From a virus (taxonomy: Duplodnaviria > Heunggongvirae > Uroviricota > Caudoviricetes): a stretch of DNA of 34,937 bases. The position numbers were made by a program, and so were the translations under genes. Every line of letters starts with the position of its first letter. The stretch's first letter is position 1. Below the pieces are notes generated by a model. That model worked only from the letters and a program-made list of their open reading frames with translations. It did not search any database and was not told the DNA's origin. Below are positions 11,447-31,261 of this stretch, in pieces. The stretch lies in the IMG/VR virus record IMGVR_UViG_2571042690_000022; one strand, given 5' to 3'.

Positions 11447-11508
11447 ATCGTATTCTCCTCTGTGAATAATTCATCGTTTATCCTGCACATCCCGTATCCC
11501 CGGCTCTC

Positions 11509-11526
11509 TTAACGCGCTTTAAAATC
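11509..11526 (+). promoter_or_regulatory. late-promoter motif copy 1 (TTAACGCGCTTTAAAATC) upstream of lysis genes
   Basis: One of four copies of TTAA-N6-TTAAWATC, each in a late intergenic gap 32-56 nt before a start codon. Confidence 0.45.
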
Positions 11527-11576
11527 CTTCGCGCCCTGTATTTGTGATGCTGTCTCCACCAGATAAGGAGACACAC

Positions 11577-11927
11577 ATGAAAAACCTGAAAAAATTCATT
11601 CCCCCTGTTAAAAAACCTCGCCTCAGCGGCTGGCTGCTGACCTCAGTGCTGTTGCTGGGCACCATCGCTCTGGTCTCACCACAGCAGCTGCCTGTTGTGA
11701 TCTACAAGCTGGCACTCATCACGCTGGCAGCAGTGCTGGGTTACTGGCTTGACCGTTCGCTCTTCCCCAAAGCCCGTCCCGGTCAGTACCTGAAACATGA
11801 CGACAGGCTGATGGCTGAAGGGCGTTTCCCGGTACAGACCGGCCTTCACCTGGTGTTTTCTGCTGCGTTAATCCGCCGTGCACTGATTGTTGCAGCGGTC
11901 TGCCTGGCTGTTGCGATGGGGCTTTAA
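11577..11927 (+). CDS. holin-like membrane protein
   Basis: 116 aa from ATG 11577 with AAGGAG RBS 7 nt upstream; 2-3 predicted TM helices; immediately precedes the endolysin. Confidence 0.5.
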   Translation: MKNLKKFIPPVKKPRLSGWLLTSVLLLGTIALVSPQQLPVVIYKLALITLAAVLGYWLDRSLFPKARPGQYLKHDDRLMAEGRFPVQTGLHLVFSAALIRRALIVAAVCLAVAMGL

Positions 11928-11929
11928 TC

Positions 11930-12670
11930 ATGAACTGGCCGCAGATCACCTGGATTGTATGCATGTCCCTGAAACTGGCTTTCGAAGCCTTTCGGGTCTT
12001 CATCAGAACCGAACGCCTGTCAGTCCGCGCCGGGACCTTTCTGGTTCATATGGCATGGGTATTCTTTGTCGCAATGTTGCTCTGGTGTGGCGGCTTTTTC
12101 AGCCAGGCATGCGCAGCACAACCTCCGCAGGCTGCGCTGCAGTATCGCGATGATGTGATCCGTAATGCCCGGCTTGAATGGGGACTGTCTGCGCCGGTGG
12201 CCGATTTCGCCGCGCAACTGCATCAGGAAAGCGGCTGGCGACCTGATGCGATCTCGCCGGCTGGCGCTCAGGGACTGGCGCAGTTCATGCCTGCCACTGC
12301 CGACTGGATAAGCCAGTTGATACCGATGCTGAGCAGTCGTGAGCCGTTTAATCCGGCATGGGCTATCCGGGCGCTGGTCAGCTATGACCGCTGGCTGTGG
12401 CAGCGTGTCAGCGCCGCCAGTGACTGCGAGCGTATGGCCATGACACTGTCGGGCTATAACGGTGGTCTGGGCTGGGTACAACGGGACAGGCGGCTTGCAT
12501 CACAGAAAGGTCTGGACAGCACCCGCTGGTTCGGACATGTCGCCACGGTGAATGCCGGACGCAATGCGGCCAGCTGGCGGGAGAACCGCCATTATCCGCA
12601 GCGCATCCTGCGCGAACTGGCACCGCGATATCTCACATGGGGAGGCAGCAGTTGTGTGGCATCTGGTTAA
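11930..12670 (+). CDS. endolysin, lytic transglycosylase (SLT domain) with N-terminal hydrophobic segment
   Basis: QLHQESGWRPDAISPAGAQGLAQFMPAT contains the catalytic ES and GxxQ motifs of SLT lytic transglycosylases; N-terminus has hydrophobic stretches (signal or SAR-like). Confidence 0.75.
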   Translation: MNWPQITWIVCMSLKLAFEAFRVFIRTERLSVRAGTFLVHMAWVFFVAMLLWCGGFFSQACAAQPPQAALQYRDDVIRNARLEWGLSAPVADFAAQLHQESGWRPDAISPAGAQGLAQFMPATADWISQLIPMLSSREPFNPAWAIRALVSYDRWLWQRVSAASDCERMAMTLSGYNGGLGWVQRDRRLASQKGLDSTRWFGHVATVNAGRNAASWRENRHYPQRILRELAPRYLTWGGSSCVASG

Positions 12671-13304
12671 AAAGCTGCCGTGGCGCGGCATTCTGCTGGC
12701 CATTCTTATCAATGCCTTTCTGGTCGGCCTGTATGCCATGGGATACAGAAGTGGTCATGACTCTGCAAAGCGTGACGGTGATACCGCGCTAAGTCAGTTG
12801 CAGTCAGCATTTGACGCGTACAAAACGGAGCAGGCAACGCTTGAGAATGCTGCGCTGCGGGCCTGGGCCAGACGGTATCAGGAGCAGGTGGCCGCCGGGC
12901 AGCGGGCTGAAGCCGGTTATCTTGAGCAGATTGCTCAACTGGAGAGCCGGAACAAACAACTACAGGGGCAAATTAACGATGTCACACAGCGCTGGATTGA
13001 TGAAAAAGGTAAGAGTCATCCCATTGAGTGCGTGTTTACTCGCGGTTTCGTGCGCCAGTACAACGCCGCACTCGGATATGACAACGCATCCGTCGACACC
13101 GGTCATTCAGACTCAGTTGCCGCCACTGGCACCCGCTCTGGCACAGCGACCGGGCAACCTGAAACCACTGACACCCGGTTACGCGATTCGGGTGTCTCCC
13201 AGCGTGACGTTCTCGCCAACATCATCGACAACGCATGGCAATGTCGTCGCTGGCGGAACCAGATAAACGCGCTGCTGGATGAACGGGAAGGATTACAGAA
13301 ATGA
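12654..13304 (+). CDS. Rz-like i-spanin
   Basis: GTG start at 12654 with GGGGAGG RBS 8 nt upstream; N-terminal TM (WRGILLAILINAFLVGLYAMGY) then long helical region; contains an embedded +1 frame lipoprotein ORF. Confidence 0.55.
   Translation: MWHLVKKLPWRGILLAILINAFLVGLYAMGYRSGHDSAKRDGDTALSQLQSAFDAYKTEQATLENAALRAWARRYQEQVAAGQRAEAGYLEQIAQLESRNKQLQGQINDVTQRWIDEKGKSHPIECVFTRGFVRQYNAALGYDNASVDTGHSDSVAATGTRSGTATGQPETTDTRLRDSGVSQRDVLANIIDNAWQCRRWRNQINALLDEREGLQK
13000..13266 (+). CDS. Rz1-like o-spanin (outer-membrane lipoprotein) embedded in Rz
   Basis: +1 frame ORF inside Rz: MKKVRVIPLSAC... with lipobox-like LSAC/AVSC and a proline-rich mature part; alternative start at ATG 12979. Confidence 0.5.
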   Translation: MKKVRVIPLSACLLAVSCASTTPHSDMTTHPSTPVIQTQLPPLAPALAQRPGNLKPLTPGYAIRVSPSVTFSPTSSTTHGNVVAGGTR

Positions 13305-13627
13305 CACTGCAGGTTGAATTCTGGACGGTGGTGAGTTTTCTGCTCACCTTCATGAGGTTTGTGGGAGGGCTCGCCAAATGGTTGTTCAGTAAAACAGAAG
13401 AACGCCAGGCGGCACGATTCGCCTCCCTTGAACAGGCCCTGCAACAATCCGCCTCCAACTGGGGCGAGCTGGAAAAAGAATTTATGCGATTTAAAGCGGA
13501 TTTACCGCTGAATTATGTCCGTCGAGAGGATTATATCCGTGGCCAGACAGTCATTGAGGCCAAACTGGACGCGCTTTATAACAAACTGGAAGTGGTACAG
13601 CAGTACCGCAATACCGGAGGTCAATAA
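13301..13627 (+). CDS. small membrane protein of the late operon (Mu gp25-like position)
   Basis: 108 aa with N-terminal TM helix; coupled to flanking genes. Confidence 0.45.
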   Translation: MTLQVEFWTVVSFLLTFMRFVGGLAKWLFSKTEERQAARFASLEQALQQSASNWGELEKEFMRFKADLPLNYVRREDYIRGQTVIEAKLDALYNKLEVVQQYRNTGGQ

Positions 13628-13938
13628 TGGTCGATATTACCCGGGTACGCCGCGAATCCCTGCGCTGGAGTCTGCTGGTTGCCCTGAACAAGACCCGCCC
13701 TTACACCGCCAGCGAGACGCTGCTGCTGGATGTGTCCCGTGCCATCTACCCGGACACCACACCGCTGGAACTGCGCCGCGAACTGGATTATCTGGCTGAC
13801 CGTAAAATGGTTGAGCTGGAGAAAAAACCTTCTGGCGACTGGTTTGCTGACCTGACCCGCCTCGGCGTAGACCTGGTGGAATACACCGTGGAATGTGGTC
13901 CGGGTATTGCCCGCCCGGAAAAGTACTGGAGTGAATAA
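13627..13938 (+). CDS. hypothetical late protein (Mu gp26-like position)
   Basis: 103-aa ORF, start overlapping the previous stop; no motif recognised. Confidence 0.45.
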   Translation: MVDITRVRRESLRWSLLVALNKTRPYTASETLLLDVSRAIYPDTTPLELRRELDYLADRKMVELEKKPSGDWFADLTRLGVDLVEYTVECGPGIARPEKYWSE

Positions 13939-14483
13939 TGGCCAGACGCAGCACAATAGAAAAGCTGCCGGAAGACGTGCGCCGCTGGCTTGAACGGGCG
14001 CTGACTGAATCCGGCTTCAGCGGGTATAACGAGCTGGAGTCACTGTTGCGTGAGCGGGGGTACGTCATCAGCAAATCCGCTATCCATCGCTATGGACAGA
14101 AGATTGAGCGCCGCTATGGTGCTATCCGTGCGGCAACAGAAGCGGCCCGCATGCTGACCGAAGGCGCAGCAGACGATCAGGATGCGCGTTCGGAGGCTGT
14201 GATAGCCCTTATTCAGACCGAGCTGTTCGAGAGTATTGTCCAGTTGCAGGAGGCGGAAGAAGGCGAAGTCGATCCTAAAGAACGCGTGGCCCTGCTGTCG
14301 AAGGTGGCGAAGAATGTGGCTACGCTGTCCCGCGCGTCCGTCAACCTCAAAAAGTTCCAGTCTGAAGTACGGGCCAGAGCGCAGCAGGCAGCCAGCAACG
14401 CCGAGAAAATTGCCCGTAAGGGGGGACTGTCAAGCGACGCAGTACAGGCGCTTCGTCGCGAGATTCTGGGGATTGCCACATGA
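13938..14483 (+). CDS. Mu gp27-like protein (DUF3486), terminase small-subunit candidate
   Basis: 181 aa directly upstream of the large terminase; N-terminal region resembles DUF3486/gp27 of Mu-like phages (recollection). Confidence 0.6.
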   Translation: MARRSTIEKLPEDVRRWLERALTESGFSGYNELESLLRERGYVISKSAIHRYGQKIERRYGAIRAATEAARMLTEGAADDQDARSEAVIALIQTELFESIVQLQEAEEGEVDPKERVALLSKVAKNVATLSRASVNLKKFQSEVRARAQQAASNAEKIARKGGLSSDAVQALRREILGIAT

Positions 14484-16075
14484 CAAAATCATCCGGAGTG
14501 ATTTTAAACGCCGCTGGCGGCGGCCCCGAAGGGATGAGTCCCATGGACGGGAGGAATAACCTTGCTCCCGTTTTGCCTGATACCTCGGCGCTGGATGCCC
14601 CTCCCGTTCTGTTGCCTTACCAGCAGCGCTGGGTGGCAGACACCTCTCCGCTTAAGGTGATAGAAAAGAGCCGTCGTACCGGTATTACATGGGCTGAGGC
14701 ATCCGATAACGTACTGACCGCCGCCTCTTCTGCGCCAGCAGGCGGGATGAATGTGTATTACATCGCTTATAACCAGGACATGACCGTCGAATACATTCAG
14801 GCGTGTGCGATGTGGGCACGGGCATTCAACTATGCGGCCAGTGAAATTGAAGAAGGATTCTGGGAAGAGGACGACGACGACAAACACATCAAGACTTACA
14901 CCATCAAATTTCCTGACTCCGGCTTTCGTATTGTTGCGCTCTCCAGCCGCCCGTCTAACCTGCGTGGCCGTCAGGGTATTATTGTTATCGACGAAGCGGC
15001 GTTCCATGAGCAACTGGACGAACTGCTGAAAGCGGCGCTGGCGATGCTTATCTGGGGGGGAAAGGTACGCGTTATCTCCACCCATGACGGTGACGACAAT
15101 CCGTTCAATACGCTTATCGGGGATATCCGTGCCGGACGTCAGGGAGGCAGCATACATCGCATCACTTTCCGGGAAGCCGTATCTGAGGGGCTGTTCCGGC
15201 GCGTCTGTCTGCGCACCGGGAAGGAATGGTCGGAGGCATCCGAGCAGGCCTGGATGGCATCGGTGTACAAATTCTACGGTGCCGGCGCATCCGAAGAGCT
15301 TGACTGTATTCCGGCCAACGGTGGCGGTGCCTGGCTGTCCCGTGCCCTGATAGAGTCCCGCATGTCCGCTGATACGCCGGTATTGCGTCTGACCTGCAAG
15401 GAAGGTTATGAACTGCTGTCTGATGAGGTTCGCTTCCGCGAGACGCAGGACTGGCTTGATGAGTATCTGAAACCATTGCTGGAGGCACTCCCCACTGATG
15501 CCCGCTCTTTCCTGGGGCGCGACTTTGGCCGTAGCGGTGATTTGTCGGTGGACTATCCCCTGCTGCAGGAGAAGAACCTGGTACGACGCGTGCCATTCGT
15601 ACTGGAGCTGCGTAACGTGCCGTTCAGACAGCAGGAGCAAATCACCTGGTATCTGATGGATGGCCTGCCCGGTCTGCTGGGTGCAGCGTTTGATGCCCGT
15701 GGTAATGGTGCCTATCTGGCTGAATACGCCATGCAGCGCTACGGCTCCGGCCGGGTTCAGCAGGTGATGCCAACCGAAGGCTGGTACCGGGAGCATATGC
15801 CTCCGGTCAAAGCTGCACTGGAAGACGGCAACCTGGTGGACTTACCAAAGGATGAAGACACACTGGATGACCTGCGGGCCGTTCAGGTGGTGAACGGTGT
15901 CCCCCGCGTACCGGAGCAACGCTCAAAAGCAAAGGCTGACGGTGGTAAACGCCACGGGGATTCAGCCATCGCACTGGCGCTGGCGTATTTCGCCAGCCGT
16001 GAAATTAACAAAGGGCCGGTGAAGGCAAGCTCACGCCGTCGTCGTCAGGCGGCCCGTATGCTGGAGGGATTCTGA
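14480..16075 (+). CDS. terminase large subunit (Mu gp28-like)
   Basis: 531 aa; ATPase-like segments (GIIVIDEAAF Walker B-like) and C-terminal acidic nuclease-like region; position before the portal. Confidence 0.85.
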   Translation: MTKSSGVILNAAGGGPEGMSPMDGRNNLAPVLPDTSALDAPPVLLPYQQRWVADTSPLKVIEKSRRTGITWAEASDNVLTAASSAPAGGMNVYYIAYNQDMTVEYIQACAMWARAFNYAASEIEEGFWEEDDDDKHIKTYTIKFPDSGFRIVALSSRPSNLRGRQGIIVIDEAAFHEQLDELLKAALAMLIWGGKVRVISTHDGDDNPFNTLIGDIRAGRQGGSIHRITFREAVSEGLFRRVCLRTGKEWSEASEQAWMASVYKFYGAGASEELDCIPANGGGAWLSRALIESRMSADTPVLRLTCKEGYELLSDEVRFRETQDWLDEYLKPLLEALPTDARSFLGRDFGRSGDLSVDYPLLQEKNLVRRVPFVLELRNVPFRQQEQITWYLMDGLPGLLGAAFDARGNGAYLAEYAMQRYGSGRVQQVMPTEGWYREHMPPVKAALEDGNLVDLPKDEDTLDDLRAVQVVNGVPRVPEQRSKAKADGGKRHGDSAIALALAYFASREINKGPVKASSRRRRQAARMLEGF

Positions 16076-17571
16076 TGGCGAGGGGTATCTGGGTTTCACC
16101 CGATGAATTTGTTGCTTTTTCTGAGCCTCAGAAATCACTGACCGCGCAGATTGCCTCCCGCAGCCGCGCGATCGACTTTTACGGACTGGGCATGTATCTG
16201 CCCAATCCTGATCCCATTCTCAAGGCTCAGGGACGGGATATCCGTATCTACCGCGAACTGCGCACCGACCCGCTGGTCGGGGGCTGTATCCGCAGACGTA
16301 AAGCAGCGCTCAAATCGCTGGAGCGTGGACTGGAGCGTGGTCACGCCTCTGCCCGGGTCTTCCGTTTCATCCGCGACATGCTCGACGATCTGGATCTGTC
16401 CCGCATCATCGGTGAAATGAGCGATGCCGTGCTCTACGGGTATCAGCCCTGTGAAATCATGTGGGGCCGTTCGGTCAGGTCGTGGGCGGTGACGGATATT
16501 GTCGGCAAACCGCCTGAGTGGTTTCAGTTTGATACGGACAACTGCCTGCGCTTTCGGGCGCGTGATGCGGGTGTGGAGGGTGAGCTGCTGTCACCGTCAA
16601 AATTCGTGGTGCCGGCACAGGATGCCTCGTATGACAATCCTTACGGTTTCCCGGACCTGTCCATGTGCTTCTGGCCGGTCGCCTTCAAGAAAGGCGGGAT
16701 GAAATTCTGGCTCCGCTTTGCCGAAAAGTTTGGCTCCCCGTGGGTGATCGGTAAGCACCCGAGGGGCGCAAATGATGCAGAGATTGAAAAACTGCTGGAC
16801 TCCATGGAGCAGATGGTGGAGGACGCGGTGGCCGCCATCCCCGATGACAGCAGTATTGAGCTCAGGGCAGCGGATGGCAAGGCAGACAGCAGCGAGGTAT
16901 TTCGCGAGCTGATCACACTGTCACGCAGTGAGATCTCCATTGCATTACTCGGTCAGAATCAGACCACGGAAGCGAACAGTAACAAGGCCTCTGCACAGGC
17001 CGGGCTGGAGGTAACGGCTGATATCCGCGATGCGGATGCGGACATCATTCAGGCGGCAGTGAATCAGGTCATCAGAACGGTGGTCACCCTGAACTTCGGC
17101 GATGTGCCGTGTCCGGTCTGGGCCATGTGGGAACAGGAGGCCATTGATGACACCCGTGCCACCCGCGACGAAAAACTCACCCGGGCGGGTCTGCGTCTGA
17201 CCCCGCAGTACTTCAAGCGTGAGTACCAACTGCAGGACGGCGATATTGACGAGACACCACCGTCGGAACGCCAGAATAACATGCTGCCGCTGTCATTTGC
17301 CGAGGCGATTGATGCTGATATTCAGGCTCAGCAGCAGCTTGACGACGCGCTGGACATTCTGATGAACGGAGGCGCGTTAAATGGCACGCTGGAACCCGTC
17401 CTGGCACCTCTGTTCAGGCGGGTCGAAAACGGGGTTAACCCGTCTGAGCTGCTGGGCGAACTGGCGGAGCTCTACCCTCAGATGAACACGGACGATCTGC
17501 AGGAGCGGCTGGCCCGCATTCTCTTTGTGGCAAATATCCGGGGACGTCTGCATGAGCGTGACAACGGCTGA
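16075..17571 (+). CDS. portal protein (Mu gp29-like, DUF935)
   Basis: 498 aa immediately after terminase, TGATG start/stop overlap; size and position typical of Mu-type portal. Confidence 0.8.
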   Translation: MARGIWVSPDEFVAFSEPQKSLTAQIASRSRAIDFYGLGMYLPNPDPILKAQGRDIRIYRELRTDPLVGGCIRRRKAALKSLERGLERGHASARVFRFIRDMLDDLDLSRIIGEMSDAVLYGYQPCEIMWGRSVRSWAVTDIVGKPPEWFQFDTDNCLRFRARDAGVEGELLSPSKFVVPAQDASYDNPYGFPDLSMCFWPVAFKKGGMKFWLRFAEKFGSPWVIGKHPRGANDAEIEKLLDSMEQMVEDAVAAIPDDSSIELRAADGKADSSEVFRELITLSRSEISIALLGQNQTTEANSNKASAQAGLEVTADIRDADADIIQAAVNQVIRTVVTLNFGDVPCPVWAMWEQEAIDDTRATRDEKLTRAGLRLTPQYFKREYQLQDGDIDETPPSERQNNMLPLSFAEAIDADIQAQQQLDDALDILMNGGALNGTLEPVLAPLFRRVENGVNPSELLGELAELYPQMNTDDLQERLARILFVANIRGRLHERDNG

Positions 17572-18373
17572 ACTGGCGTACTGCATGACGCTTCCCCCGA
17601 AGCGGGCAATCAACTACCTGAAGTCCAAAGGATATCAGATTACCTGGGACTGGGAAGAAATGTGGCAGGAGGCCCATGCCCGCGCCTTTACCGTTGCTAA
17701 AGTGACCCGCCTGGATATCCTGGAAGATATTCGCGGGGCACTGCAGCAGGCTGTCGATGAAGGAAAAACCGATCGCTGGTTCCGGCAGGAGCTGGAGCCG
17801 GTGCTGAAGCGTAAGGGATGGTGGGGACCACGTGACACGACTGACCCGGTAACGGGTGAGCCGGTCACCATTCAGCAGGGCAGTCCGTGGCGGCTCGATA
17901 CCATCTTTCGCACCAATATGTCCGTACTCTACAGCGCCGGTCGTTGGGCGGAACAGATGGAAAACGTCGACGACAGGCCGTACTGGATGTATACCGGCAT
18001 CAACGACAGCCATACCCGCAGGAGCCATCTGGCGCTGCATGGTCTGGTGCTGCGCTGGGATGACCCGTTCTGGCAGGCATTTTACCCGCCGAACGGCTGG
18101 CGCTGCCGCTGTAGTGTTATTGCCCTGAGTGCGGCGGATGTACGTGCCCGTGGCCTGAAGGTTATCAGCTCCGGCTCTGCCATGGGCCAGGAACTGAAAC
18201 TGGTCTCAGAGAAAACCGGCGAAATGCGGAACGTGGCCACCTTTAATACCGGCACCACGAAGGTGACCACCGACGTCGGCTGGTCTTATGCTCCGGGGGC
18301 AGCATACCGTCCCGACCTGGCCCGCTATCAGGGTACGCTTCAGCCACTGGCACAACAGGAACTGAGAGGATAA
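17552..18373 (+). CDS. head morphogenesis protein (Mu F-like, gp30)
   Basis: ATG 17552 (MSVTTAELAY...) chosen; position after the portal; conserved C-terminal region with WRCRCSV motif. Confidence 0.7.
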   Translation: MSVTTAELAYCMTLPPKRAINYLKSKGYQITWDWEEMWQEAHARAFTVAKVTRLDILEDIRGALQQAVDEGKTDRWFRQELEPVLKRKGWWGPRDTTDPVTGEPVTIQQGSPWRLDTIFRTNMSVLYSAGRWAEQMENVDDRPYWMYTGINDSHTRRSHLALHGLVLRWDDPFWQAFYPPNGWRCRCSVIALSAADVRARGLKVISSGSAMGQELKLVSEKTGEMRNVATFNTGTTKVTTDVGWSYAPGAAYRPDLARYQGTLQPLAQQELRG

Positions 18374-18375
18374 CA

Positions 18376-18834
18376 ATGGCTTCCGATAACCTGGTCAGTA
18401 TCACCATTAACGATAAGTCCCTGCGCCGGAGCCTCCGTGCGCTGGATCTTGCTGCCACAGACCTGGAGCCCGCGATGCGCAAAATCGCCGGAACCCTGCT
18501 GGCGGAAACACAGTTTAACTTTCTTGATGAGGGGCGTCCGGGGTGGATGCCCTCGCTGGCAGCGGAAGAACGTGACGGGCAGACACTGCAGGATACCGGG
18601 CGTCTGATGGGGTCAGTATCAACCGACCATGACGACCGGCAGGCTGTTGTGGGGACCAACGTTGTTTACGGTGCCATTCACCAGTTCGGGGGTAAAACGG
18701 GGCGTAATGAGTCTGTTGAACTTCCGGCCCGCCCGTTCCTGCCGGTGACGGGGGATGGAGAACTACAGCCTGAAGTGGTAATCCCCATCCTCGATACCAT
18801 TGTCCGCCATCTTGAATCAGCGGCCCGTCGCTGA
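18376..18834 (+). CDS. virion morphogenesis protein (Mu G-like, gp31)
   Basis: 152 aa; position and size match Mu G; followed by a 214-bp intergenic gap. Confidence 0.65.
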   Translation: MASDNLVSITINDKSLRRSLRALDLAATDLEPAMRKIAGTLLAETQFNFLDEGRPGWMPSLAAEERDGQTLQDTGRLMGSVSTDHDDRQAVVGTNVVYGAIHQFGGKTGRNESVELPARPFLPVTGDGELQPEVVIPILDTIVRHLESAARR

Positions 18835-18879
18835 GTTTTCTCTCTTCAGGCGGGTGATTTATCATTGCCAGCGAATGAG

Positions 18880-18922
18880 GGGCTGTATTACCTTTATAAA
18901 GGCTTTACAGCCTCTGTTTTAT
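18880..18922 (+). terminator. terminator-like imperfect hairpin after gene G
   Basis: GGCTGTA (18881-18887) pairs with TACAGCC (18906-18912) around an internal CCTTTATAAAGG palindrome, followed by TCTGTTTTAT. Confidence 0.4.
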
Positions 18923-18975
18923 AACCGCCTCCGGTTCACCGCATTGCTTTCCCTGTCCTTCTCCCCTGATGTTTT

Positions 18976-18993
18976 CTAAAGCAGATTAAAATC
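18976..18993 (+). promoter_or_regulatory. late-promoter motif copy 2 (CTAAAGCAGATTAAAATC) upstream of gene I
   Basis: Same 18-bp architecture as copy 1; followed at identical spacing (23 nt) by the shared octamer CTGTCTCC (19017-19024; copy 1 has it at 11550-11557). Confidence 0.45.
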
Positions 18994-19048
18994 GCCGGGC
19001 CTGCATTTCTCACAAACTGTCTCCGACAACATAACGCGGGACAGCAAA

Positions 19049-20164: not shown

Positions 20165-20178
20165 TTTAAGGAGAGAGC

Positions 20179-21132: not shown

Positions 21133-21141
21133 GGAGGCGTT

Positions 21142-21480: not shown

Positions 21481-21481
21481 C

Positions 21482-24060: not shown

Positions 24061-24581
24061 TGTCAAAGATTGAGATAAACCGCATCACGAATGCCAACAT
24101 CTATCTGGATGGTACTAACCTGCTGGGACGGGCTGAGGAAGTTAAACTCCCCGATGTCTCCATGATTATGCAGGAACACAAGGCGCTGGGGATGGTGGGT
24201 AAGGTGGAACTCCCGGCTGGTTTTGACAAACTGGAAGGCGAAATCAAATGGAACAGCTTTTACCGCGATGCGATGCTGTCTGCCGCGAACCCGTACAGGT
24301 CGCTGGCACTGCAGTGTCGTTCCAGCGTCCAGCGCTACAGCTCGCAGGGGCTGATTGACGAAATCCCGCTGGTCACCTTCCTGACGATTATGTTCAAGAA
24401 GAACCCGCTGGGGACGTTCAAACAGCACGAGAACGCCGAGTTCTCCAGTAGCTTCACCTGCACGTATATCAGACAGGTACTGGATGGTGAAGAGCTGCTG
24501 CAACTGGACTATCTGGCCAACATCTTCCGGGTCGGCGGTGTTGATCAACTGACTGACTACCGTATCAATATCGGGGGCTGA
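24060..24581 (+). CDS. tail tube protein (Mu M-like)
   Basis: 173 aa immediately after the sheath with overlapping start. Confidence 0.8.
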   Translation: MSKIEINRITNANIYLDGTNLLGRAEEVKLPDVSMIMQEHKALGMVGKVELPAGFDKLEGEIKWNSFYRDAMLSAANPYRSLALQCRSSVQRYSSQGLIDEIPLVTFLTIMFKKNPLGTFKQHENAEFSSSFTCTYIRQVLDGEELLQLDYLANIFRVGGVDQLTDYRINIGG

Positions 24582-24583
24582 CG

Positions 24584-24865
24584 GTGAGTGTTGAACTGAC
24601 GGATAAAGGAGGACGATGTGCGGCACTGGGCATGTCAAATGGTACGTGGTTTACCCTCCTTGATATTCCGGGGGTGGAAACCCTTTTTAATACCCGTAAA
24701 ACCAATGACCCGATTGACTGCACACGTTCAAAGGCCCGCAAACTGGCGGATTTGATTGAAGCATGGGAGCCTCCCGACCACTGGTTCTCCGGCATCGGCA
24801 AATCTGAGGGAAAGACGCTTCTCATCGCTTTCCTGCGTAACTGCAAGGGGTTTCGCACTTGCTGA
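24584..24865 (+). CDS. hypothetical protein between tube and tail chaperone
   Basis: 93-aa ORF followed by a terminator-like hairpin; no motif recognised. Confidence 0.4.
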   Translation: MSVELTDKGGRCAALGMSNGTWFTLLDIPGVETLFNTRKTNDPIDCTRSKARKLADLIEAWEPPDHWFSGIGKSEGKTLLIAFLRNCKGFRTC

Positions 24866-24871
24866 CATCAC

Positions 24872-24896
24872 AGGGGCTCCGGCCCCTTCTTCTTAA
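24872..24896 (+). terminator. terminator-like hairpin after the sheath/tube block
   Basis: AGGGGC (24872-24877), loop TCCG, GCCCCT (24882-24887), then TCTTCTTAATCTCCTTT. Confidence 0.45.
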
Positions 24897-24910
24897 TCTC
24901 CTTTAATATC
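24893..24910 (+). promoter_or_regulatory. late-promoter motif copy 3 (TTAATCTCCTTTAATATC) upstream of tail chaperone
   Basis: Third copy of TTAA-N6-TTAAWATC, 53 nt before ATG 24963. Confidence 0.4.
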
Positions 24911-24962
24911 CGTCACGCGCTTCTCCCGACATACTGCCCTGAACTTACACAGGAGCACAATC

Positions 24963-25298
24963 ATGTCACAGACCCCATCCGATACTTTTAAATTGTCTTA
25001 TCCCTTCACCACTGCTGCAGGCACCAGAATTGAGCTGGTTGAACTGAAACGCCTGACGGTAAAAGACCTGAAGCAGGTGCGCAAAATCAGCAAAAACCCG
25101 GCAGACTGGGACGAACCGCTGATTGCCCGCAGTACTGGTCTTCTCCCGGAGGATCTCGACAATATGGATCTGGCTGATTACCTGCAGTTACAGAAACGAT
25201 TTCAGCTCATCACGGGGATGGGTGAGAGCAACCAGGGCGCTGACGCAGGCGCAGGGGCTGCTGGCGAGATGGTTCCGGTTTCAGCCGGGGGAGATTGA
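24963..25298 (+). CDS. tail assembly chaperone (G-like ORF)
   Basis: 111 aa between tube and tape measure, overlapped by a +1 frame ORF, the conserved two-ORF chaperone arrangement of tailed phages. Confidence 0.5.
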   Translation: MSQTPSDTFKLSYPFTTAAGTRIELVELKRLTVKDLKQVRKISKNPADWDEPLIARSTGLLPEDLDNMDLADYLQLQKRFQLITGMGESNQGADAGAGAAGEMVPVSAGGD

Positions 25299-25380
25299 TG
25301 CCCTCGATACTGACGATCTGGAGATGTGGCTGGAGCAGGCTGAAGAGCAAATCAAAAGCGAGTACGGCGACAAATCATAG
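25123..25380 (+). CDS. tail chaperone frameshift extension (GT-like), +1 frame
   Basis: +1 frame ORF overlapping the chaperone 3' end; a GGGGG run at 25287-25291 three codons before the chaperone stop could mediate a +1 slip; exact site unverified. Confidence 0.4.
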   Translation: MPAVLVFSRRISTIWIWLITCSYRNDFSSSRGWVRATRALTQAQGLLARWFRFQPGEIDALDTDDLEMWLEQAEEQIKSEYGDKS

Positions 25381-25385
25381 TACAG

Positions 25386-25406
25386 ACAGCCGCCAGTAGC
25401 GGCTGT
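25386..25406 (+). terminator. hairpin (attenuator/terminator-like) before tape measure gene
   Basis: ACAGCCGC (25386-25393), loop CAGTA, GCGGCTGT (25399-25406), then pyrimidine-rich tract; tape-measure RBS GGAGG at 25442-25446. Confidence 0.4.
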
Positions 25407-25455
25407 TCTGCGTTATCCCCTCACGTCTTTTCACCTTCCCCGGAGGTTAACCACT

Positions 25456-28407
25456 ATGTCGGGACAGTTTTCAGTCGGCGTTGTTATCGGCGGGATGATT
25501 GGCAGCACATTCCGTTCTGCAATGAGCGGTACCCGCCGTGCGCTTGATTCCCTGAGCGATACCTCACGCCGCCTGCAGGAACGTCAGAACGCTTTAACCC
25601 GTGCAACAGAACGTTATGGTCAACTGGGTTCTTCCCGGATGCAGCATCTCAACAGCGAGCTGCTGCGGGTAAGCCGCACCATGGAGCAAATTGAGCGCCA
25701 GCAGCGCCGTCTGTCAGCGGCATCCGCTACCAGTGATGCGCTGAAAGCTAACCGCATGGCGCTGTATGGTCAGGGGATTGAAGCGTATGGCATGGCACAG
25801 ACTGTTTATCATACGGTTTCCCCTGCCGTTCAGCAGTCCATGTCTTTTCAGGACAAAATGATTGATATGTCGATCACCGCAAAATATGACAATAAAACGC
25901 GGGATGCACTTGCCGGACAGATAAAAGGCTGGGCGCTTAAATACAATCAGTATCAGGATGAGCTGCAGGAGGCGATGGGTTCACTCATCAGCGACAATAT
26001 TGATAATGTGTCAGATATCGGTTTTCTGATGCCGGATATTGCCCGCGCGGCAACGGCAACACGCACGTCTGCTCAGGACTGGGCAAAAGTGGCCGCAGTC
26101 TGGCAAAACTCCCTGAAAGGCGCGGCCAGAGATTTTGGTGCCGTTCAGAATATTATGGCTTATGCCGGTGACCAGGGGTCATTTGAAATCCCGGATCAGG
26201 TCAAGTGGATGCAGTCCCTGGCCCCAATGATGGCGGGTATTGCCAGTGGAAAAGAGGCTGTTGCTGAAATCGGGGCCAGTCTCCAGATAGCAAAAATCGG
26301 TGCAGGTTCCACCGACGAAGCAGCCAATAATTTTAAAAACTTTCTTACCAAAATTTTTGCCCGCGATACTCAGAAACAGTTTGCTGATCTGGGTATTGAT
26401 TTGCAGGGATCTATTGCGAGTTATAAAGCTGCGGGGATCTCTCCGATTGAAGGGATGTTGAGTGTTATAGAACGTTACCTCAATGCCAAAAGCCCCGAAG
26501 CGCTGGCCGGCTTCAAATCAGCCATGAAAATAAAGAATGATACGGCAAGAGATGAGGCACTTCAGGCTCTGGCGAAAAACTTTGGTCTGGGCGATATGTT
26601 CGCGGATATGCAGGTCATGGCATTTATCCGCCCGATGCTGGCCAACATGGACAGATATCGAGAGATCCGTGCCGGTGCTCTCAGGGCTGCGGATAACGAT
26701 TTGCTTGCCAGTGCTTATGATCAGCGGCTGAAATCTCCCCTTGAAGCCACTAAAACACTTATGGTCAGCAGTCGCGATCTGGCAATTACGCTGGGCGATC
26801 AATTAGCTCCATCTTTTATTTCTCTGACTCAGGACTTGCTCCCACTCATTCAGGGGACAAAACACTGGGTGGCGACTCACCCGCAATTTGTCAGTGGGGC
26901 TTTTAAGCTCATCAGTGCGCTCCTTGCGATTAAGATAGCGACTGTTGGTCTCAAACTGGGGCTGAATCTCCTTATTTCCCCCTTTGTGAACGTCTGGAAA
27001 ACTGCTGTTTTACTCCGGACCAACTGGCATCGACTGACTACCGCACTCGGAGAAGGTGGCAAATTACGCTGGCTTGTCACTGGATTCAGCCGACTGACCA
27101 GCGGAGGACTGAAACTCAGCAAAGTTCTGGCGGGCAGCCTCGTTCGCGGTTTTATGAGCGCTGCACGTGCCGTTCTCTGGATTGGGCGAGCGCTGATGAT
27201 GAATCCCATCGGTCTCGTTATCACCGCTGTCGCGGCAGCAGCTTACCTTATCTACCGCAACTGGGGGGCAGTCAGTGGCTGGTTTAAACAGCGCTGGGCT
27301 GACATTCAGGAAGCCTTTAACGGCGGTATCGCGGGAACTGGTAAGCTGCTGATTAACTGGTCGCCGGCAGGCCTGCTCTATAAAGCCTTTGCGGCTGCGC
27401 TGAAATATTTCGGCGTTACTCTGCCGGCAAAGTTCACCGACTTCGGTGGCCATCTTATCGACGGTTTGATTAACGGTATCAAAAACAAATGGGGGTCGCT
27501 CAAATCCAGTGTAACCGGAATGGGTGACAGCATCAGTAGCTGGTTTAAACAATGCTGGGCTGACATTCAGGAAGCCTTTAACGGCGGTATCGCGGGAACT
27601 GGTAAGCTGCTGATTAACTGGTCGCCGGCAGGTCTGCTCTATAAAGCCTTTGCAGCTGCGCTGAAATATCTTGGTGTTGATCTGCCGGCAAAGTTTACCG
27701 ACTTCGGTGGCCATCTTGTCGATGGTCTGATTAACGGTATCAAAAACAAATGGGAGTCGCTCAAATCCAGTGTAACCGGAATGGGCGACAGCATCAGTGG
27801 CTGGTTCAGCGAAAAGCTGGGCATTCATTCGCCGAGCCGCGTGTTTATGGGCTTTGGTGACAATATCGCGCAGGGGGCCGCCATTGGCCTGCAGCGGACC
27901 ACTCCGCTTGCAGCTCTGGCCGGGCAGCGAATGGCCAGTGAACTGCTCCCCAGAATGCCCGTGAGCATTCAGGGGCCAGAAATACGGGATAACACTTCAG
28001 GTGTTCGCTTCAGTATGCCGTTGCCCGATATCAATGGGTTTATGTCGTCTGCTAAAAATGCGATCGGAGCCGTAATCAATAGTTTGTCTTCCATGCCCGC
28101 TATTCCGCTCTCCACCCGGGCATCGATTTTACCAGGGCAACGTCTGGCAAATGAGATGACACCGGATGTTCCCCGTATCCCCTCGCCTGAAATCCTGGCT
28201 GCCGGATATTCAGGCCGTGGTGCAGCTGCAACCGGCGGTGGAACGTCTGGTGGTATCCAGGTCAGCTTTAATCCTCAGTTTTTCCTCAATGGCAGGGAAA
28301 CCACAGCGCCTGCAGGACTGACTGGTGCCCTGAATATGAGTCTGCATGAGCTGGAAAAAATGCTGGAGCGTCTGCTGGCTCAGAAACAACGTAAGGAGTA
28401 CCGCTGA
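25456..28407 (+). CDS. tail tape measure protein
   Basis: 983 aa, largest gene; helical/Ala-rich composition; position after the chaperone pair; contains an internal 87-aa tandem duplication. Confidence 0.85.
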   Translation: MSGQFSVGVVIGGMIGSTFRSAMSGTRRALDSLSDTSRRLQERQNALTRATERYGQLGSSRMQHLNSELLRVSRTMEQIERQQRRLSAASATSDALKANRMALYGQGIEAYGMAQTVYHTVSPAVQQSMSFQDKMIDMSITAKYDNKTRDALAGQIKGWALKYNQYQDELQEAMGSLISDNIDNVSDIGFLMPDIARAATATRTSAQDWAKVAAVWQNSLKGAARDFGAVQNIMAYAGDQGSFEIPDQVKWMQSLAPMMAGIASGKEAVAEIGASLQIAKIGAGSTDEAANNFKNFLTKIFARDTQKQFADLGIDLQGSIASYKAAGISPIEGMLSVIERYLNAKSPEALAGFKSAMKIKNDTARDEALQALAKNFGLGDMFADMQVMAFIRPMLANMDRYREIRAGALRAADNDLLASAYDQRLKSPLEATKTLMVSSRDLAITLGDQLAPSFISLTQDLLPLIQGTKHWVATHPQFVSGAFKLISALLAIKIATVGLKLGLNLLISPFVNVWKTAVLLRTNWHRLTTALGEGGKLRWLVTGFSRLTSGGLKLSKVLAGSLVRGFMSAARAVLWIGRALMMNPIGLVITAVAAAAYLIYRNWGAVSGWFKQRWADIQEAFNGGIAGTGKLLINWSPAGLLYKAFAAALKYFGVTLPAKFTDFGGHLIDGLINGIKNKWGSLKSSVTGMGDSISSWFKQCWADIQEAFNGGIAGTGKLLINWSPAGLLYKAFAAALKYLGVDLPAKFTDFGGHLVDGLINGIKNKWESLKSSVTGMGDSISGWFSEKLGIHSPSRVFMGFGDNIAQGAAIGLQRTTPLAALAGQRMASELLPRMPVSIQGPEIRDNTSGVRFSMPLPDINGFMSSAKNAIGAVINSLSSMPAIPLSTRASILPGQRLANEMTPDVPRIPSPEILAAGYSGRGAAATGGGTSGGIQVSFNPQFFLNGRETTAPAGLTGALNMSLHELEKMLERLLAQKQRKEYR
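27273..27806 (+). repeat. near-perfect 261-bp in-frame tandem duplication inside the tape measure gene
   Basis: Unit beginning ...GCTGGTTTAAACA recurs with 261-nt offset (27301 vs 27562), a handful of mismatches; protein WFKQ(R/C)WADIQEAFNGGIAGTGKLLINWSPAGLLYKAFAAALKY... repeated. Confidence 0.85.
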
Positions 28408-29291
28408 TGTTTGCCGTACTGGGTGATATTGAGTTTGAGCTGATTACCTACTGGGACGGCTTCGAGGCCACGTTCGGCGTCGATTATGCGGAGCATGCCC
28501 GCATCGGGGGTAAGCCTGGTCTGCAGTTCGTCGGCGACAGGCTGGACGAAATCCAGATAACTCTGGTTTTCCATCAGCATTATTGTGTACCCGATGTGGA
28601 GCTGGCGAGACTGCGAACAGCCATGAAAGCCCATCAGGCACTGGCGCTGGTCTTCGGCAACGGTGACTATCGCGGCTGGTTCGTGATCACCGATGTGACT
28701 GCAACCAGCGAGCAGACTGACAGTACCGGCAACGTGCTGGCTGTCAGTGCCACCGTGTCTCTCCGGGAATACACCGGTGACCCGAAAAATCCTCTGCAAC
28801 CACCGGCAATACGCACGAAGCTCCCGGGTGTCGGGGCGGTCTCCGGTGCCATACCTTCACCTTCAGGGGTGGCGCAGTTCATCCGCAACGGCGTCAACTA
28901 TGCGAAACAGGCGCAGTCTGTACTCCAGACCACTATCAGCGCCGTTCGGGTGACACAGAAAATGAAGGATAACCCCGTTGTCGCACTGACCCGTGTGCCG
29001 GGGCTGATGAGCGGACTGGGTAATATCTCCGGGGCTCTGGGGAAAAGTGTTCCGGCGTTTAACGCACTCTCTGAATCCATGCCCGATGCCATCAGTCTGG
29101 CCAGAACAGCCAGCGAAGCAGCCACGTATGTACAGCAGGCACAGTCTGCGCTGAGTGGTGTGGACAAAAGAAATATTGCAGGTGCTCTGGATACCGTTTC
29201 CGGGCAGCTTAACGCCGTCGGCACAGCATTCAACCGCATGTCTCCGGGATTAAGTGCAATGGCCGCCAGAATACTGACGAGGAGTGTGTGA
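28407..29291 (+). CDS. tail protein (Mu N / DNA circularisation protein-like, short form)
   Basis: 294 aa immediately after tape measure; N-terminus MFAVLGDIEFE typical of this position in Mu/P2-type tails; assignment by synteny. Confidence 0.55.
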   Translation: MFAVLGDIEFELITYWDGFEATFGVDYAEHARIGGKPGLQFVGDRLDEIQITLVFHQHYCVPDVELARLRTAMKAHQALALVFGNGDYRGWFVITDVTATSEQTDSTGNVLAVSATVSLREYTGDPKNPLQPPAIRTKLPGVGAVSGAIPSPSGVAQFIRNGVNYAKQAQSVLQTTISAVRVTQKMKDNPVVALTRVPGLMSGLGNISGALGKSVPAFNALSESMPDAISLARTASEAATYVQQAQSALSGVDKRNIAGALDTVSGQLNAVGTAFNRMSPGLSAMAARILTRSV

Positions 29292-29503
29292 TGTTTCTTG
29301 AACATGTTACCCGTGACGGAGAGCGCTGGGATTCGCTGGCATGGCAGTACTACGGTGACCCGCTGGGCTATCCCCGGATTATTGCCGCCAATCCGCACGT
29401 GGCCATCACGCCGGTGCTGCCCTCCGGGCTGTTGTTACTGATCCCGGTGATTGAGGCTGAAGAAGCCCGTACAGAAGAGGATATTGCCCCATGGCTGAGA
29501 TAA
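29288..29503 (+). CDS. tail protein X-like (LysM-like)
   Basis: 71 aa; WQYYGDP...IIAANPHV...LPSGLLLLIP pattern resembles P2 gpX-type proteins (recollection). Confidence 0.55.
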   Translation: MMFLEHVTRDGERWDSLAWQYYGDPLGYPRIIAANPHVAITPVLPSGLLLLIPVIEAEEARTEEDIAPWLR

Positions 29504-30645
29504 ACAGCACTGCGCAAGTCACATCAGCGTTAACCGGCGTCAGCGATGTGCTGACACCGGTGTTCACTCTGTGGTATCTGCAGAAAAACATCACCTCTGA
29601 TATCGCGCCTTATGTCACCCGTGTGACCTGGAGCGATAACATCAAAAATGAGTCCGATACCATTGAGGTGGAGCTGGACGACACCGATGGCCGCTGGCTG
29701 GATAAATGGTATCCGGGCAAGGGTGACACGCTGACGCTGAAAATGGGCTATCAGGGCGAGAAGCTGCTGTCCTGCGGTACGTTCTCTATAGACGAGATCG
29801 AAGTGAGTTCGCCCGCTTCCGTTGTTTCTATCCGTGGGGTGGCCACCTCGGTTAACAGTGCCCTGCGGACTAAAACCAGTCGTGGTTTTGAGAACACCAC
29901 GCTGGCAGCTGTTGCGGGGCGGATTGCCAGAAAGCACCGGCTGAAACTGGTGGGCAGCATTGAGTCCATCAGAATCGACCGGGTGACCCAGTATGCTGAA
30001 ACCGACGTGGGTTTTCTGCGCCGGCTGGCCAGCGAGTATGGTTATGCAGTGAAAGTGGTCAGTGACCAGCTGATTTTTTCTCATCTGGCCACACTGCGCA
30101 GTCAGGAGCCGGTCAGGCAGTTAAAACCGCAGGATGTGGCCCGCTTTTCCCTGCGTGACACCATCAACCGGGTCTATAAATCTGCAAAGGTAAAACACCA
30201 GAAAAGCAGCAGTAAAAAACTGATCGTCTACGAAGCTGATGGTGGTACCCGTGAAAGCGACAAAAAGCTCAAAGGTGGTAAGGTTACCAGCGCTGACTCA
30301 CTTAAAGTTAACAGCCGCGTCAGCGACCCGGACAGTGCCCGGATTAAAGCGGATTCAGCACTGGCCAGACATAACGAATACCAGCAGAACGGCTCCCTGA
30401 CGCTGACGGGAACACCTCAACTGACAGCAGGCAACAAAATTGAACTGGTGAGTTTTGGGCAGTTATCCGGGCCATGGCTCATAACCACTGCCCGCCATGC
30501 GTTTGACCGTAACAGCGGCTACACCACAGAGCTGGAAGTGGCACGGGGGCCAGTCACAAGAGGGAAAAAACAAAAAACTCAGAAACTCACGGTTTATCAC
30601 CCGGATGGCAGTACATCGACGGTGATTAAGGAGAAGAAAAAATGA
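29491..30645 (+). CDS. baseplate hub protein (gpD-like / Mu P-like)
   Basis: 384 aa; synteny before the spike protein. Confidence 0.65.
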   Translation: MAEINSTAQVTSALTGVSDVLTPVFTLWYLQKNITSDIAPYVTRVTWSDNIKNESDTIEVELDDTDGRWLDKWYPGKGDTLTLKMGYQGEKLLSCGTFSIDEIEVSSPASVVSIRGVATSVNSALRTKTSRGFENTTLAAVAGRIARKHRLKLVGSIESIRIDRVTQYAETDVGFLRRLASEYGYAVKVVSDQLIFSHLATLRSQEPVRQLKPQDVARFSLRDTINRVYKSAKVKHQKSSSKKLIVYEADGGTRESDKKLKGGKVTSADSLKVNSRVSDPDSARIKADSALARHNEYQQNGSLTLTGTPQLTAGNKIELVSFGQLSGPWLITTARHAFDRNSGYTTELEVARGPVTRGKKQKTQKLTVYHPDGSTSTVIKEKKK

Positions 30646-31238
30646 CTGGTGTCACTCGTCAGGTCGGTACGGTCAGTGCCGTTGATGCCGACAGGGTTCA
30701 GGCCCGCGTTCGTCTGCCTGAATGCGATAACCTGCGCACAAACTGGCTTAACGTGCTGCAGCGCAATACCCAGGATAACAAAGATTACTGGCTCCCTGAC
30801 GTGGGGGAGCAGGTTGAGGTGCTGCTCGATGCCAACGGCGAGGATGGTGTTATTCTGGGCGCGGTGTATTCAGACGTCGATAAACCACCGTTCAGTGACA
30901 AAAATATCCGGGGAACCCGGTTTGCTGATGGTGCAGAGTACAGCTACAACCGGAAGACGCACACTCTGATCATCCGGGGCGGCATTGAGCATATTGTCAT
31001 TGAGTGTGGTGCTGATGTGGTATTGAAAACACAGAAAGCCACGATTGACGCACCGGAAACCGAACTTACCGGAGATCTGCGTGTCAGGGGTAAGCTGATT
31101 TACGAAGGAGGCATGGCGGGTTCTGGTGGTGAAGGTGTTACCGCGACCATCCATGGCAATATCGAGATTAAAGGGAATGTCCATGCCACGGGCAGTATGT
31201 TGTCTGATGGCGAAAACTCCAGCCACCACTCCCACTGA
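30642..31238 (+). CDS. baseplate spike / assembly protein V-like (Mu gp45-like)
   Basis: 198 aa; position and size typical of gpV-type spike; C-terminal Gly-rich region. Confidence 0.65.
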   Translation: MTGVTRQVGTVSAVDADRVQARVRLPECDNLRTNWLNVLQRNTQDNKDYWLPDVGEQVEVLLDANGEDGVILGAVYSDVDKPPFSDKNIRGTRFADGAEYSYNRKTHTLIIRGGIEHIVIECGADVVLKTQKATIDAPETELTGDLRVRGKLIYEGGMAGSGGEGVTATIHGNIEIKGNVHATGSMLSDGENSSHHSH

Positions 31239-31243
31239 GCTTT

Positions 31244-31261
31244 TTAAACGCCTTTAATATC
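31244..31261 (+). promoter_or_regulatory. late-promoter motif copy 4 (TTAAACGCCTTTAATATC) upstream of baseplate genes
   Basis: Fourth copy of TTAA-N6-TTAAWATC, 32 nt before ATG 31293; followed by the hairpin at 31275-31292. Confidence 0.4.

Follow-up and report, generated by a model that had tools for sequence, protein, structure and literature searches.

A repeated TTAA-N6-TTAA box at the predicted late promoters of a Bcepmuvirus-type prophage, a candidate operator for its Mor-type activator

Introduction

The late promoters of transposable phage Mu depend on C, an activator of the Mor/C family. At the Mu C site, an imperfect dyad of 16 bp has its centre at -43.5, and adjoining downstream bases matter (PMC2582627), the MuC consensus reads TTAT-N5-6-ATAA, and MuC promoters carry a -10 element without a -35 element (PMC12867686). 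At Pm, the Mor-dependent promoter of Mu, the dyad lies just upstream of a poor -35 element (PMC4287176). Here we describe an 18-bp element, TTAA-N6-TTAAWATC, that recurs upstream of the late operons in a 34,937-nucleotide stretch of viral DNA (IMG/VR record IMGVR_UViG_2571042690_000022; the whole stretch is called the window below). We put at about 85% the probability that these boxes are operators of Mor-dependent late promoters, bound by the single Mor-type activator that the window encodes. Pm differs from them in driving the middle operon that encodes C, whereas the boxes of the window precede late structural and lysis genes with no second activator; the Mor protein of the window is about equally similar to Mu Mor and Mu C.

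Judged by sequence, the window is a Bcepmuvirus-type transposable, Mu-like prophage. Between 10.5 and 20.5 kb it is 100% identical to Escherichia phage PhiKM, which is classified in Bcepmuvirus, and about 85% identical to Klebsiella phage KP12 and Escherichia phage Phi06_2974 B (megablast), and its gene order is that of Burkholderia phage BcepMu, so that both similarity and gene order are of Bcepmuvirus type. As in the window, BcepMu carries mor and gemA at its left end on the minus strand, its late genes on the plus strand, and four promoter modules at the holin, I, chaperone and W genes. No description of a BcepMu-type late promoter motif was found in the searchable literature, which did not include the original BcepMu genome paper.

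Results

The early operon of the window (transposase, Gam, GemA and, as its final gene, the Mor/C-family gene) runs leftward on the minus strand, a lysogeny and cargo region occupies about 8.4-11.5 kb, and the late region runs rightward from the holin ATG at 11577. Allowing at most one mismatch, the pattern TTAANNNNNNTTAAWATC has exactly four matches in the window, all on the plus strand, against 0.10 expected, and none of 100 shuffled windows reached four copies:

11509-11526, plus strand: box 1 (P_lys), TTAACGCGCTTTAAAATC, ahead of the holin, SLT transglycosylase, spanin and terminase/portal genes
18976-18993, plus strand: box 2 (P_I), CTAAAGCAGATTAAAATC, ahead of the head protease and major head genes
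24893-24910, plus strand: box 3 (P_tac), TTAATCTCCTTTAATATC, ahead of the tail assembly chaperone and tape measure genes
31244-31261, plus strand: box 4 (P_W), TTAAACGCCTTTAATATC, ahead of the gp25/W-like baseplate wedge gene and J, I and H

An initial annotation, made from the sequence alone, had pointed out these four sites, and the pattern scan returned exactly them; the whole-window motif scan that it had called for confines the element to four intergenic gaps (11447-11576, 18835-19048, 24866-24962 and 31239-31292), which together make up less than 2% of the window, with no copies within coding regions. Box 2 carries one mismatch (CTAA). The distance from the last base of the box to the A of the start codon, given beforehand as 32-56 nt, measures 51, 56, 53 and 32 nt for the ATGs at 11577, 19049, 24963 and 31293, respectively. 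Pfam and PHROGs assignments also bear out the downstream blocks that had been proposed (lysis, head I, chaperone/tape measure and baseplate): a lysis block of holin, SLT transglycosylase and Rz-like spanin from 11577, with terminase/portal genes in the same P_lys unit; a head maturation protease (ATG 19049) followed by the major head protein; a tail assembly chaperone (ATG 24963) followed by the tape measure; and a gp25/W baseplate wedge (ATG 31293) with J, I and H in the same unit. The tail genes of PhiKM and BcepMu are annotated as homologues of P2 FI, FII, E, T, U, D, V, W, J, I and H.

The core of the box is a dyad, TTAA-N6-TTAA, because TTAA is its own reverse complement, and its half-sites lie 10 bp apart. 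When a position weight matrix (PWM) was built with one box left out, the omitted box ranked fourth in the window each time, right behind the three training boxes. The next-best independent match fell far below the four boxes; since the core is palindromic, the top remaining scores were opposite-strand readings of the boxes themselves.

Exactly 19 nt downstream of each of the four boxes lies a -10-like hexamer of the form nAnnCT, followed by G, in which A2 and T6 are invariant. These are the two most conserved positions of a -10 element. The hexamers (GATGCT, CAAACT, CATACT and AATACT) and the starts predicted from them are as follows:

11546-11551, plus strand: GATGCT of P_lys, with TG at 11543-11544 (extended -10); predicted start about 11558
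19013-19018, plus strand: CAAACT of P_I, the same hexamer as that annotated for Mu PI; predicted start about 19025
24930-24935, plus strand: CATACT of P_tac, 19 nt past box 3; predicted start about 24942
31281-31286, plus strand: AATACT of P_W, ending 6 nt before ATG 31293; predicted start 31293

All four predicted starts (11558, 19025, 24942 and 31293) are purines. No -35-like hexamer lies 16-18 bp from the -10 in the four gaps, and a consensus scan of these gaps returned no canonical sigma-70 promoter. With the hexamer placed at -12 to -7, the dyad, whose midpoint falls 35.5 bp upstream of the final hexamer base, would be centred at about -42.5, and the box would extend from about -49 to -32. 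Because only 6 nt separate the -10 of P_W from the ATG and a Shine-Dalgarno sequence is lacking, the W mRNA is predicted to be leaderless; the same short distance between hexamer and ATG at W is seen in BcepMu, Pseudomonas phage Komp_PAO1_1 and Pasteurella phage AFS-2018a. The sequence CTGTCTCC that the initial annotation had placed exactly 23 nt past boxes 1 and 2 was found there, at 11550-11557 and 19017-19024, and consists of the tail of the -10 hexamer together with the 5' arm of an inverted repeat described below.

The conservation of these elements was determined from the DNA upstream of homologous genes, extracted from 160 related loci in viral contigs (2.75 Mb). Each gap shows two conserved islands, the box and the -10 block, with a variable spacer between them: mean information per position reaches 1.6-1.9 bits in the box and 1.6-1.95 in the -10 block, compared with 0.7-1.2 in the spacer and 0.7-0.9 upstream of the box. 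The P_lys box, for example, averages 1.81 bits against 0.72 upstream of it, and the P_I box 1.68 bits against 0.67 in the spacer. The -10 block ATTTGTGATGCTGTCTCC of P_lys is almost invariant among the relatives, which also keep CATACTGC at the -10 of P_tac. A site of 15 bits or more is present 40-140 nt ahead of the start codon in 66/66 holin genes, 118/118 I (protease) genes, 138/138 chaperone genes and 57/63 W genes. Across the 2.75 Mb, 382 of the 402 matches of at least 15 bits occupy such a position 40-140 nt upstream of homologous genes; of the 20 found elsewhere, 15 represent one additional conserved promoter in tailocin-like clusters.

The PWM derived from the window sites only was then applied out of sample to distant phages. 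In BcepMu (63% G+C), the W, holin, protease and chaperone gaps rank 1, 2, 5 and 8, with the box variants CTAAAGCCGATTAAAAGA and TTAGCCGGCTTTAATATC, each site 19 nt before a hexamer nAnnAT. In Komp_PAO1_1, whose Mor is 46% identical to that of the window, the top four matches are the lysis, I (protease), chaperone and W gaps, after which the score drops from 20.7 to 7.7 bits. Pasteurella phage AFS-2018a (40% G+C, Mor 46% identical, Mu-like colinear gene order) supplies four of its top five matches from late gaps, ahead of the amidase, protease, chaperone and W genes; its boxes TTAAACCACTTTAAAATC, TTAAAGCACTTTAAAATC, TTAAAGCGCTTTAAAAGC and TTAAAGCGCTTTAAAATC are followed 19 nt later by TATACT, TATTCT, TAAACT and TAATAT. 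All three distant phages thus keep the 19-nt gap to a -10-like hexamer, and the consensus of the box family is a perfect palindrome, TTAAAGC/GCTTTAA, followed by WAKC. In the siphovirus JBD25 (Mor 41% identical), taken as a negative control, the window PWM found nothing, the best match scoring 3.4 bits.

These comparisons brought several side observations. Three late gaps of JBD25, those ahead of gp24, gp36 and gp46, have a repeated motif of their own, C(C)TTCCAAAAKA, which is probably the late box of the JBD25 clade. In BcepMu, the annotated start of gp32 at 18850 falls within the predicted P_I -10, GATGAT (module 18812-18855), and this start may be mis-annotated. An extra box-like site of BcepMu (10453-10496), upstream of gp19, is followed 19 nt downstream by CAAAAT. 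The phages of E. coli, Burkholderia and Pseudomonas have conserved a TTTATAAAG(G/C)YTTTAC-like motif or hairpin in the gap between G and I, 70-100 nt upstream of P_I (about 18893-18925 in the window, near 18732 in BcepMu and about 5030-5060 in Komp_PAO1_1). Its genome position is that of the strong gyrase site of Mu. The motif could also be a terminator or an auxiliary activator site.

The only gene of the window that would encode a Mor/C-family activator is the following:

1-390, minus strand: mor-like gene at the end of the leftward early operon; product of 129 amino acids, matching PF08765 Mor over the full length (E = 1.3e-43)

The initial annotation had held mor to be the sole gene of its kind in the window, and this is upheld by both Pfam and tblastn: with Mu Mor and Mu C as queries, tblastn gave a match only at 1-390 (E about 4e-12), and neither approach detected a second Mor/C paralogue in the window. 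In the Pasteurella phage, the gene adjoining mor encodes an unrelated helix-turn-helix (HTH) protein. The protein is 54% identical to BcepMu gp01, 30% identical to Mu Mor over 109 amino acids and 37% identical to Mu C over 79, and the invariant motifs GG..Y.P.G and F.G.N align with those of Mu Mor and Mu C. Its recognition helix conforms to VS[LM]Q[WF][VI]Y, a sequence common to the four box-bearing phages (the window, BcepMu, Komp_PAO1_1 and Pasteurella AFS-2018a); elsewhere the helix reads VTFNTVY (Mu Mor), LSQPQIY (Mu C) and LTPSSIY (JBD25 Mor), and there the box is absent. Mor and C touch two adjacent major grooves, sites A and B, and the DNA-contacting residues of MuC are S110, Q113, Y115, Q116 and R120 (bioRxiv 10.1101/2025.05.02.651988); the aligned helix segment covers these residues. 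Mor/MuC-family proteins also carry a beta-clamp-binding motif, QPDLF-like at the C-terminus and Qx[DE][LM]F-like at the N-terminus (PMC12867686). The C-terminal QGKLF of the window Mor (residues 113-117) resembles it, and the same position holds QRDLF in BcepMu, QGDLF in Komp_PAO1_1 and QFDMF in the Pasteurella phage; at the N-terminus of the window Mor, SDLNQF bears only a loose likeness to the corresponding motif.

The initial annotation had counted four late sites. All four are real, and the count is nevertheless too low, for a fifth, degenerate site precedes the dam gene, a Dam-type methylase open reading frame at 9169-10023 on the minus strand:

10103-10120, minus strand (read 10120 to 10103): box 5 (P_dam), CTAAACCACATTAACAGA, ahead of the Dam-type methylase gene
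10078-10083, minus strand: -10 CATCAT of P_dam, followed by G, 19 nt past box 5; predicted start about 10071
10038-10069, minus strand: hairpin at the 5' end of the predicted dam leader, free energy about -31 kcal/mol

Box 5 is the fifth-ranking PWM match in the window (12.7 bits), and the original pattern missed it because its flank is CAGA instead of WATC. Among the dam leaders of 41 distinct relatives, the nTAA-N6-TTAA core is intact in 40, with 6/7 core bases in the remaining one, and a CAnnnT hexamer lies 19 or 20 nt downstream in all 41. In about half of these 41 leaders, dam stands back-to-back with the holin gene and a single palindromic box lies between two outward-facing -10 hexamers (relatives L011, L034, L039 and L047 are examples), an arrangement in which the shared box may be a bidirectional activator site. 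Read leftward, box 1 of the window is likewise followed after 19 nt by CAGGAT (11485-11480), ahead of the open reading frame 10718-11446 on the minus strand (phrog_3787). The stem in the dam leader is kept by compensatory changes in relatives (for example CCAGCCTGG...CCAGGCTGG and CCGGTCCGG...CCGGACCGG); at the gathering threshold, no Rfam family was found in the whole window, this hairpin included. The dam start codon is preceded only by a minimal, very close AGG. In the window, dam and holin are separated by three function-unassigned genes (10124-11446; phrog_4490, phrog_2266 and phrog_3787), which are absent or replaced in many relatives and mark a variable cargo slot beside the late switch; a defence-system scan of these genes gave no convincing match.

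Hairpins occur upstream of some of the boxes and, in another form, within the promoters themselves:

18900-18913, plus strand: weak terminator-like hairpin in the G-I gap, upstream of box 2
24872-24887, plus strand: terminator-like hairpin AGGGGCTCCGGCCCCT with a T-rich tail, just upstream of box 3; relatives have GGGGCTTCGGCCCC followed by T's
11550-11573, plus strand: inverted repeat CTGTCTCC / GGAGACA, free energy -14.2 kcal/mol, z-score -3.3
19017-19044, plus strand: inverted repeat CTGTCTCC / GGGACAG, spanning the P_I start and the ribosome-binding region
24935-24957, plus strand: inverted repeat TGCCCTG / CAGGAGCA, spanning the P_tac start and the Shine-Dalgarno sequence, free energy -12.1 kcal/mol, z-score -3.5
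31275-31292, plus strand: hairpin GGGGGCA-ATAC-TGCCCCC, with the P_W -10 in and around its loop, abutting the W ATG, free energy about -15 kcal/mol, z-score -5.5

The earlier statement that three of the boxes follow a hairpin was thus only partly borne out: it holds for box 3 and, weakly, for box 2, whereas the hairpin before box 4 (31178-31194) is weak and lies inside the V coding sequence, and none precedes box 1. Within the promoters, the repeat at P_lys has its 5' arm from the tail of the -10 to the predicted start and its 3' arm over the holin Shine-Dalgarno sequence, and its pairing is kept in relatives by one-sided G-U changes. At P_I, some pairs vary as CG/UG/UA or CG/GC/UA among 31 distinct relatives. 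Overall, the pairing persists in relatives by way of G-U changes and a few double changes. RNAalifold, run on the gapped alignment of P_tac leaders, returned no consensus structure. The P_W stem is kept with other sequences in BcepMu (GCGGC/GCCGC) and in the Pasteurella phage (CCCTG/CAGGG) and is weak in Komp_PAO1_1. At P_lys, P_I and P_tac, transcription is predicted to begin immediately 3' of the 5' arm, so that only read-through transcripts coming from upstream would form the whole hairpin. In Pasteurella AFS-2018a the same arm design is found in unrelated sequence, with a T-run after it, and looks terminator-like.

The same modules of box, 19 nt and hexamer are present in carotovoricin-type clusters of many Pectobacterium species (loci L168, L177, L179, L180, L184, L186, L187, L192, L193 and L196); they stand before the lysis cassette with holin and SLT, before the first tail gene and before the chaperone and W genes. 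Carotovoricin is a Mu-type tailocin (PMC13566846). In loci L144-L162 (14-16 kb), the box precedes a Gp37-like tail gene, the chaperone gene and W, and the exact 18-mer of the first of these sites is present in many Pectobacterium species; head-less clusters of this type, which combine holin/SLT with P2-like tail genes, are probably carotovoricin tailocins. The homologues of the window Mor in KP12 and phiE255 are labelled RdgB in database records. According to Liu et al. 1994, as cited in PMC13566846, RdgA and RdgB control how pectin lyase is produced following DNA damage. This suggests that RdgB, as a Mor homologue, may act through the box; the searchable literature yielded no binding-site data for RdgB, and no Mor/RdgB gene lies within the 8-kb stretches fetched at the Pectobacterium clusters.

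Discussion

The identification of the element as the site of a Mor/C-family activator at late promoters, suggested in the initial annotation by analogy with Mu, gains support from every prediction that can be checked at the level of sequence. Mor as the binding protein, the dependence of transcription on Mor and the exact starts are the parts that we infer. In the mechanism that we propose, the leftward early operon would be transcribed after induction and its last gene, mor, would yield the activator. Mor would then bind the dyad TTAA-N6-TTAA with the adjoining WATC, centred about 42-43 bp upstream of the start, and would recruit or activate host sigma-70 RNA polymerase at promoters with a -10 (nAnnCT) and without a -35. 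Five units would be turned on in this way: P_lys (lysis with packaging/portal), P_I (head), P_tac (chaperone and tape measure), P_W (baseplate and fibres) and, leftward, P_dam (the Dam-type methylase). Such a cascade would pass from the early genes through Mor to the late genes and would therefore have no separate step from Mor to C as in Mu; two steps, with Mor directly activating the late promoters, is the simplest reading.

An extension of this scheme is more tentative. A single Mor box might fire divergent promoters, and the hairpins embedded in the promoters might gate translation or termination; we regard this combination as possible, with the odds rather against it. Read-through RNA would fold and hide the Shine-Dalgarno sequence or hold the -10 in a loop, and transcripts started under Mor would have their 5' ends within the hairpin or right after it and could still be translated, the W mRNA being leaderless. 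Hairpin and promoter are combined in this way, with unrelated sequences, in the elements of E. coli and Pasteurella, and in part also in the phages of Pseudomonas and Burkholderia.

Several points weigh against Mor-dependent operators. The -10 hexamers are weak, with 3-4 of 6 consensus matches, and the placement of the dyad at -42.5 assumes 7 nt between hexamer and start, the starts themselves being predictions. The correlation between helix and box comes from seven proteins that are phylogenetically non-independent. Box 5 taken alone is weak (p about 0.09 per window) and leans on comparative support. GemA and other early genes are also common to the box-bearing genomes, so that co-occurrence alone does not single out Mor.

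This last ambiguity leads to the alternative that the boxes are indeed late operators and are bound by another phage or host protein, such as a small HTH protein of the early operon, IHF or Fis. The window does encode further HTH proteins (8053-8367 and 8414-8602 on the minus strand, 8696-9052 on the plus strand), and GemA travels with Mor in the window, BcepMu and Mu. We nevertheless find a different binder unlikely, since Mor/C promoters (PMC2582627, PMC12867686) are specifically marked by a dyad near -43 whose half-sites are 10 bp apart, next to a -10 in the absence of a -35. The early region of the Pasteurella phage, moreover, is of the Mu type and not of the BcepMu type, yet this phage shares the same box and the same Mor helix, and the repressor-like HTH gene faces the opposite way and belongs to lysogeny control. 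As for IHF, the box shows by eye no fit to the consensus WATCAR-N4-TTR. The half-sites could instead be AT-rich UP-like elements or -35 substitutes read by RNA polymerase alone, given that they are located where the alpha C-terminal domain or sigma region 4 contacts DNA, and the promoters would then be constitutive. This we consider distinctly improbable: the conservation is base-specific and palindromic (TTAAAGC/GCTTTAA) with a G+C-rich centre and is not generic AT-richness, no -35-like hexamer stands 16-18 bp from the -10, and constitutive promoters before holin and endolysin genes would presumably be lethal to a lysogen.

The P2-like tail gene homologues of PhiKM and BcepMu bring to mind a third arrangement, late control of the P2 type, dependent on Ogr/Delta and on TGT-N12-ACA near -55. 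That sequence is absent within 120 nt upstream of all four predicted starts, and tblastn with an approximate Ogr sequence found no Ogr-like gene (the best E value, 0.45, is noise); with neither the site nor an Ogr-like match present, we ruled out Ogr-type control, to which we give next to no weight. No more credible than that is a chance or selfish repeat without a regulatory role. It has in its favour that the copies are few, and it runs against the shuffled windows, none of which gave four copies, against the strictly intergenic location of the boxes, their retention while the flanks diverge, and their recurrence in genomes ranging from 40% to 63% G+C. Operators of Mor-dependent late promoters thus remain the reading that we prefer.

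Taken together, these results provide a testable map of late transcription, in which one activator serves five promoters through a defined 14-bp dyad with its flank, and which would apply to widespread Mu-like prophages of Enterobacteriaceae, Burkholderia, Pseudomonas and Pasteurella and probably to the carotovoricin tailocins of Pectobacterium. They also offer what would be a natural specificity variant within the Mor/C family, TTAA-N6-TTAA with VSLQW(V/I)Y as opposed to TTAT-N5-6-ATAA with LSQPQIY, that could be read against the new structures of Mor/C with RNA polymerase. If the proposal is true, a Mu-type phage can run on a cascade of two steps and not three. The box makes it possible to annotate late operons and tailocin clusters by their sequence and, should the dependence on Mor hold, box and Mor would form a compact inducible promoter/activator pair.

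Among described systems, the C-dependent late promoters of Mu (Plys, PI, PP and Pmom) are the closest counterpart. Both systems have an activator of the Mor/C family and two 4-bp half-sites one helical turn apart, with a centre near -43 that overlaps the -35 region, a value that is predicted for the window. In both, the promoters are small in number (four in Mu), head the lysis, head, tail/baseplate and DNA-modification units and have short leaders of about 20-25 nt, again as predicted for the window. The proximal ATAA of the Mu late promoters begins 28 nt before the -10 and the proximal TTAA of the window 27 nt before it; the hexamer of Mu PI, CAAACT followed by G, is that of P_I in the window, and the G after the -10 is common to both systems. 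Like the gene behind Pmom, the dam gene of the window is a DNA-modification gene at a (predicted) late promoter, mom being replaced by a Dam-type methylase.

The differences lie first in the recognition sequence: Mu reads ..CATAACCCC.. where the window has TTAA...TTAAWATC. The window boxes do not match the Mu C sequence (TTAT-N5-6-ATAA, CCATAACCCC), Mu C or Mu Mor boxes are absent from the window, and the window PWM has no strong match in Mu, where the best sites reach 13-16 bits and none is at a late promoter. As the geometry matches that of Mu and the sequence does not, the architecture is that of a Mor/C promoter and the recognised bases are different, as are the residues of the recognition helix. 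Mu employs a relay from Mor to C where the window has one activator, the early operon of the window is inverted relative to the late genes, and an extra promoter stands ahead of the tail chaperone gene. The baseplate promoter, which in Mu lies inside N, lies at W in the window, predicting a leaderless mRNA. The carotovoricin clusters differ from the window phage in being defective and head-less. On the evidence of its sequence, then, the system joins the Mor/C-dependent promoters, a known class, bringing its own recognition sequence and a simpler cascade, and would strike a specialist as expected rather than surprising; its less ordinary parts are the putatively bidirectional box, the hairpins embedded in the predicted promoters and the predicted leaderless W transcript.

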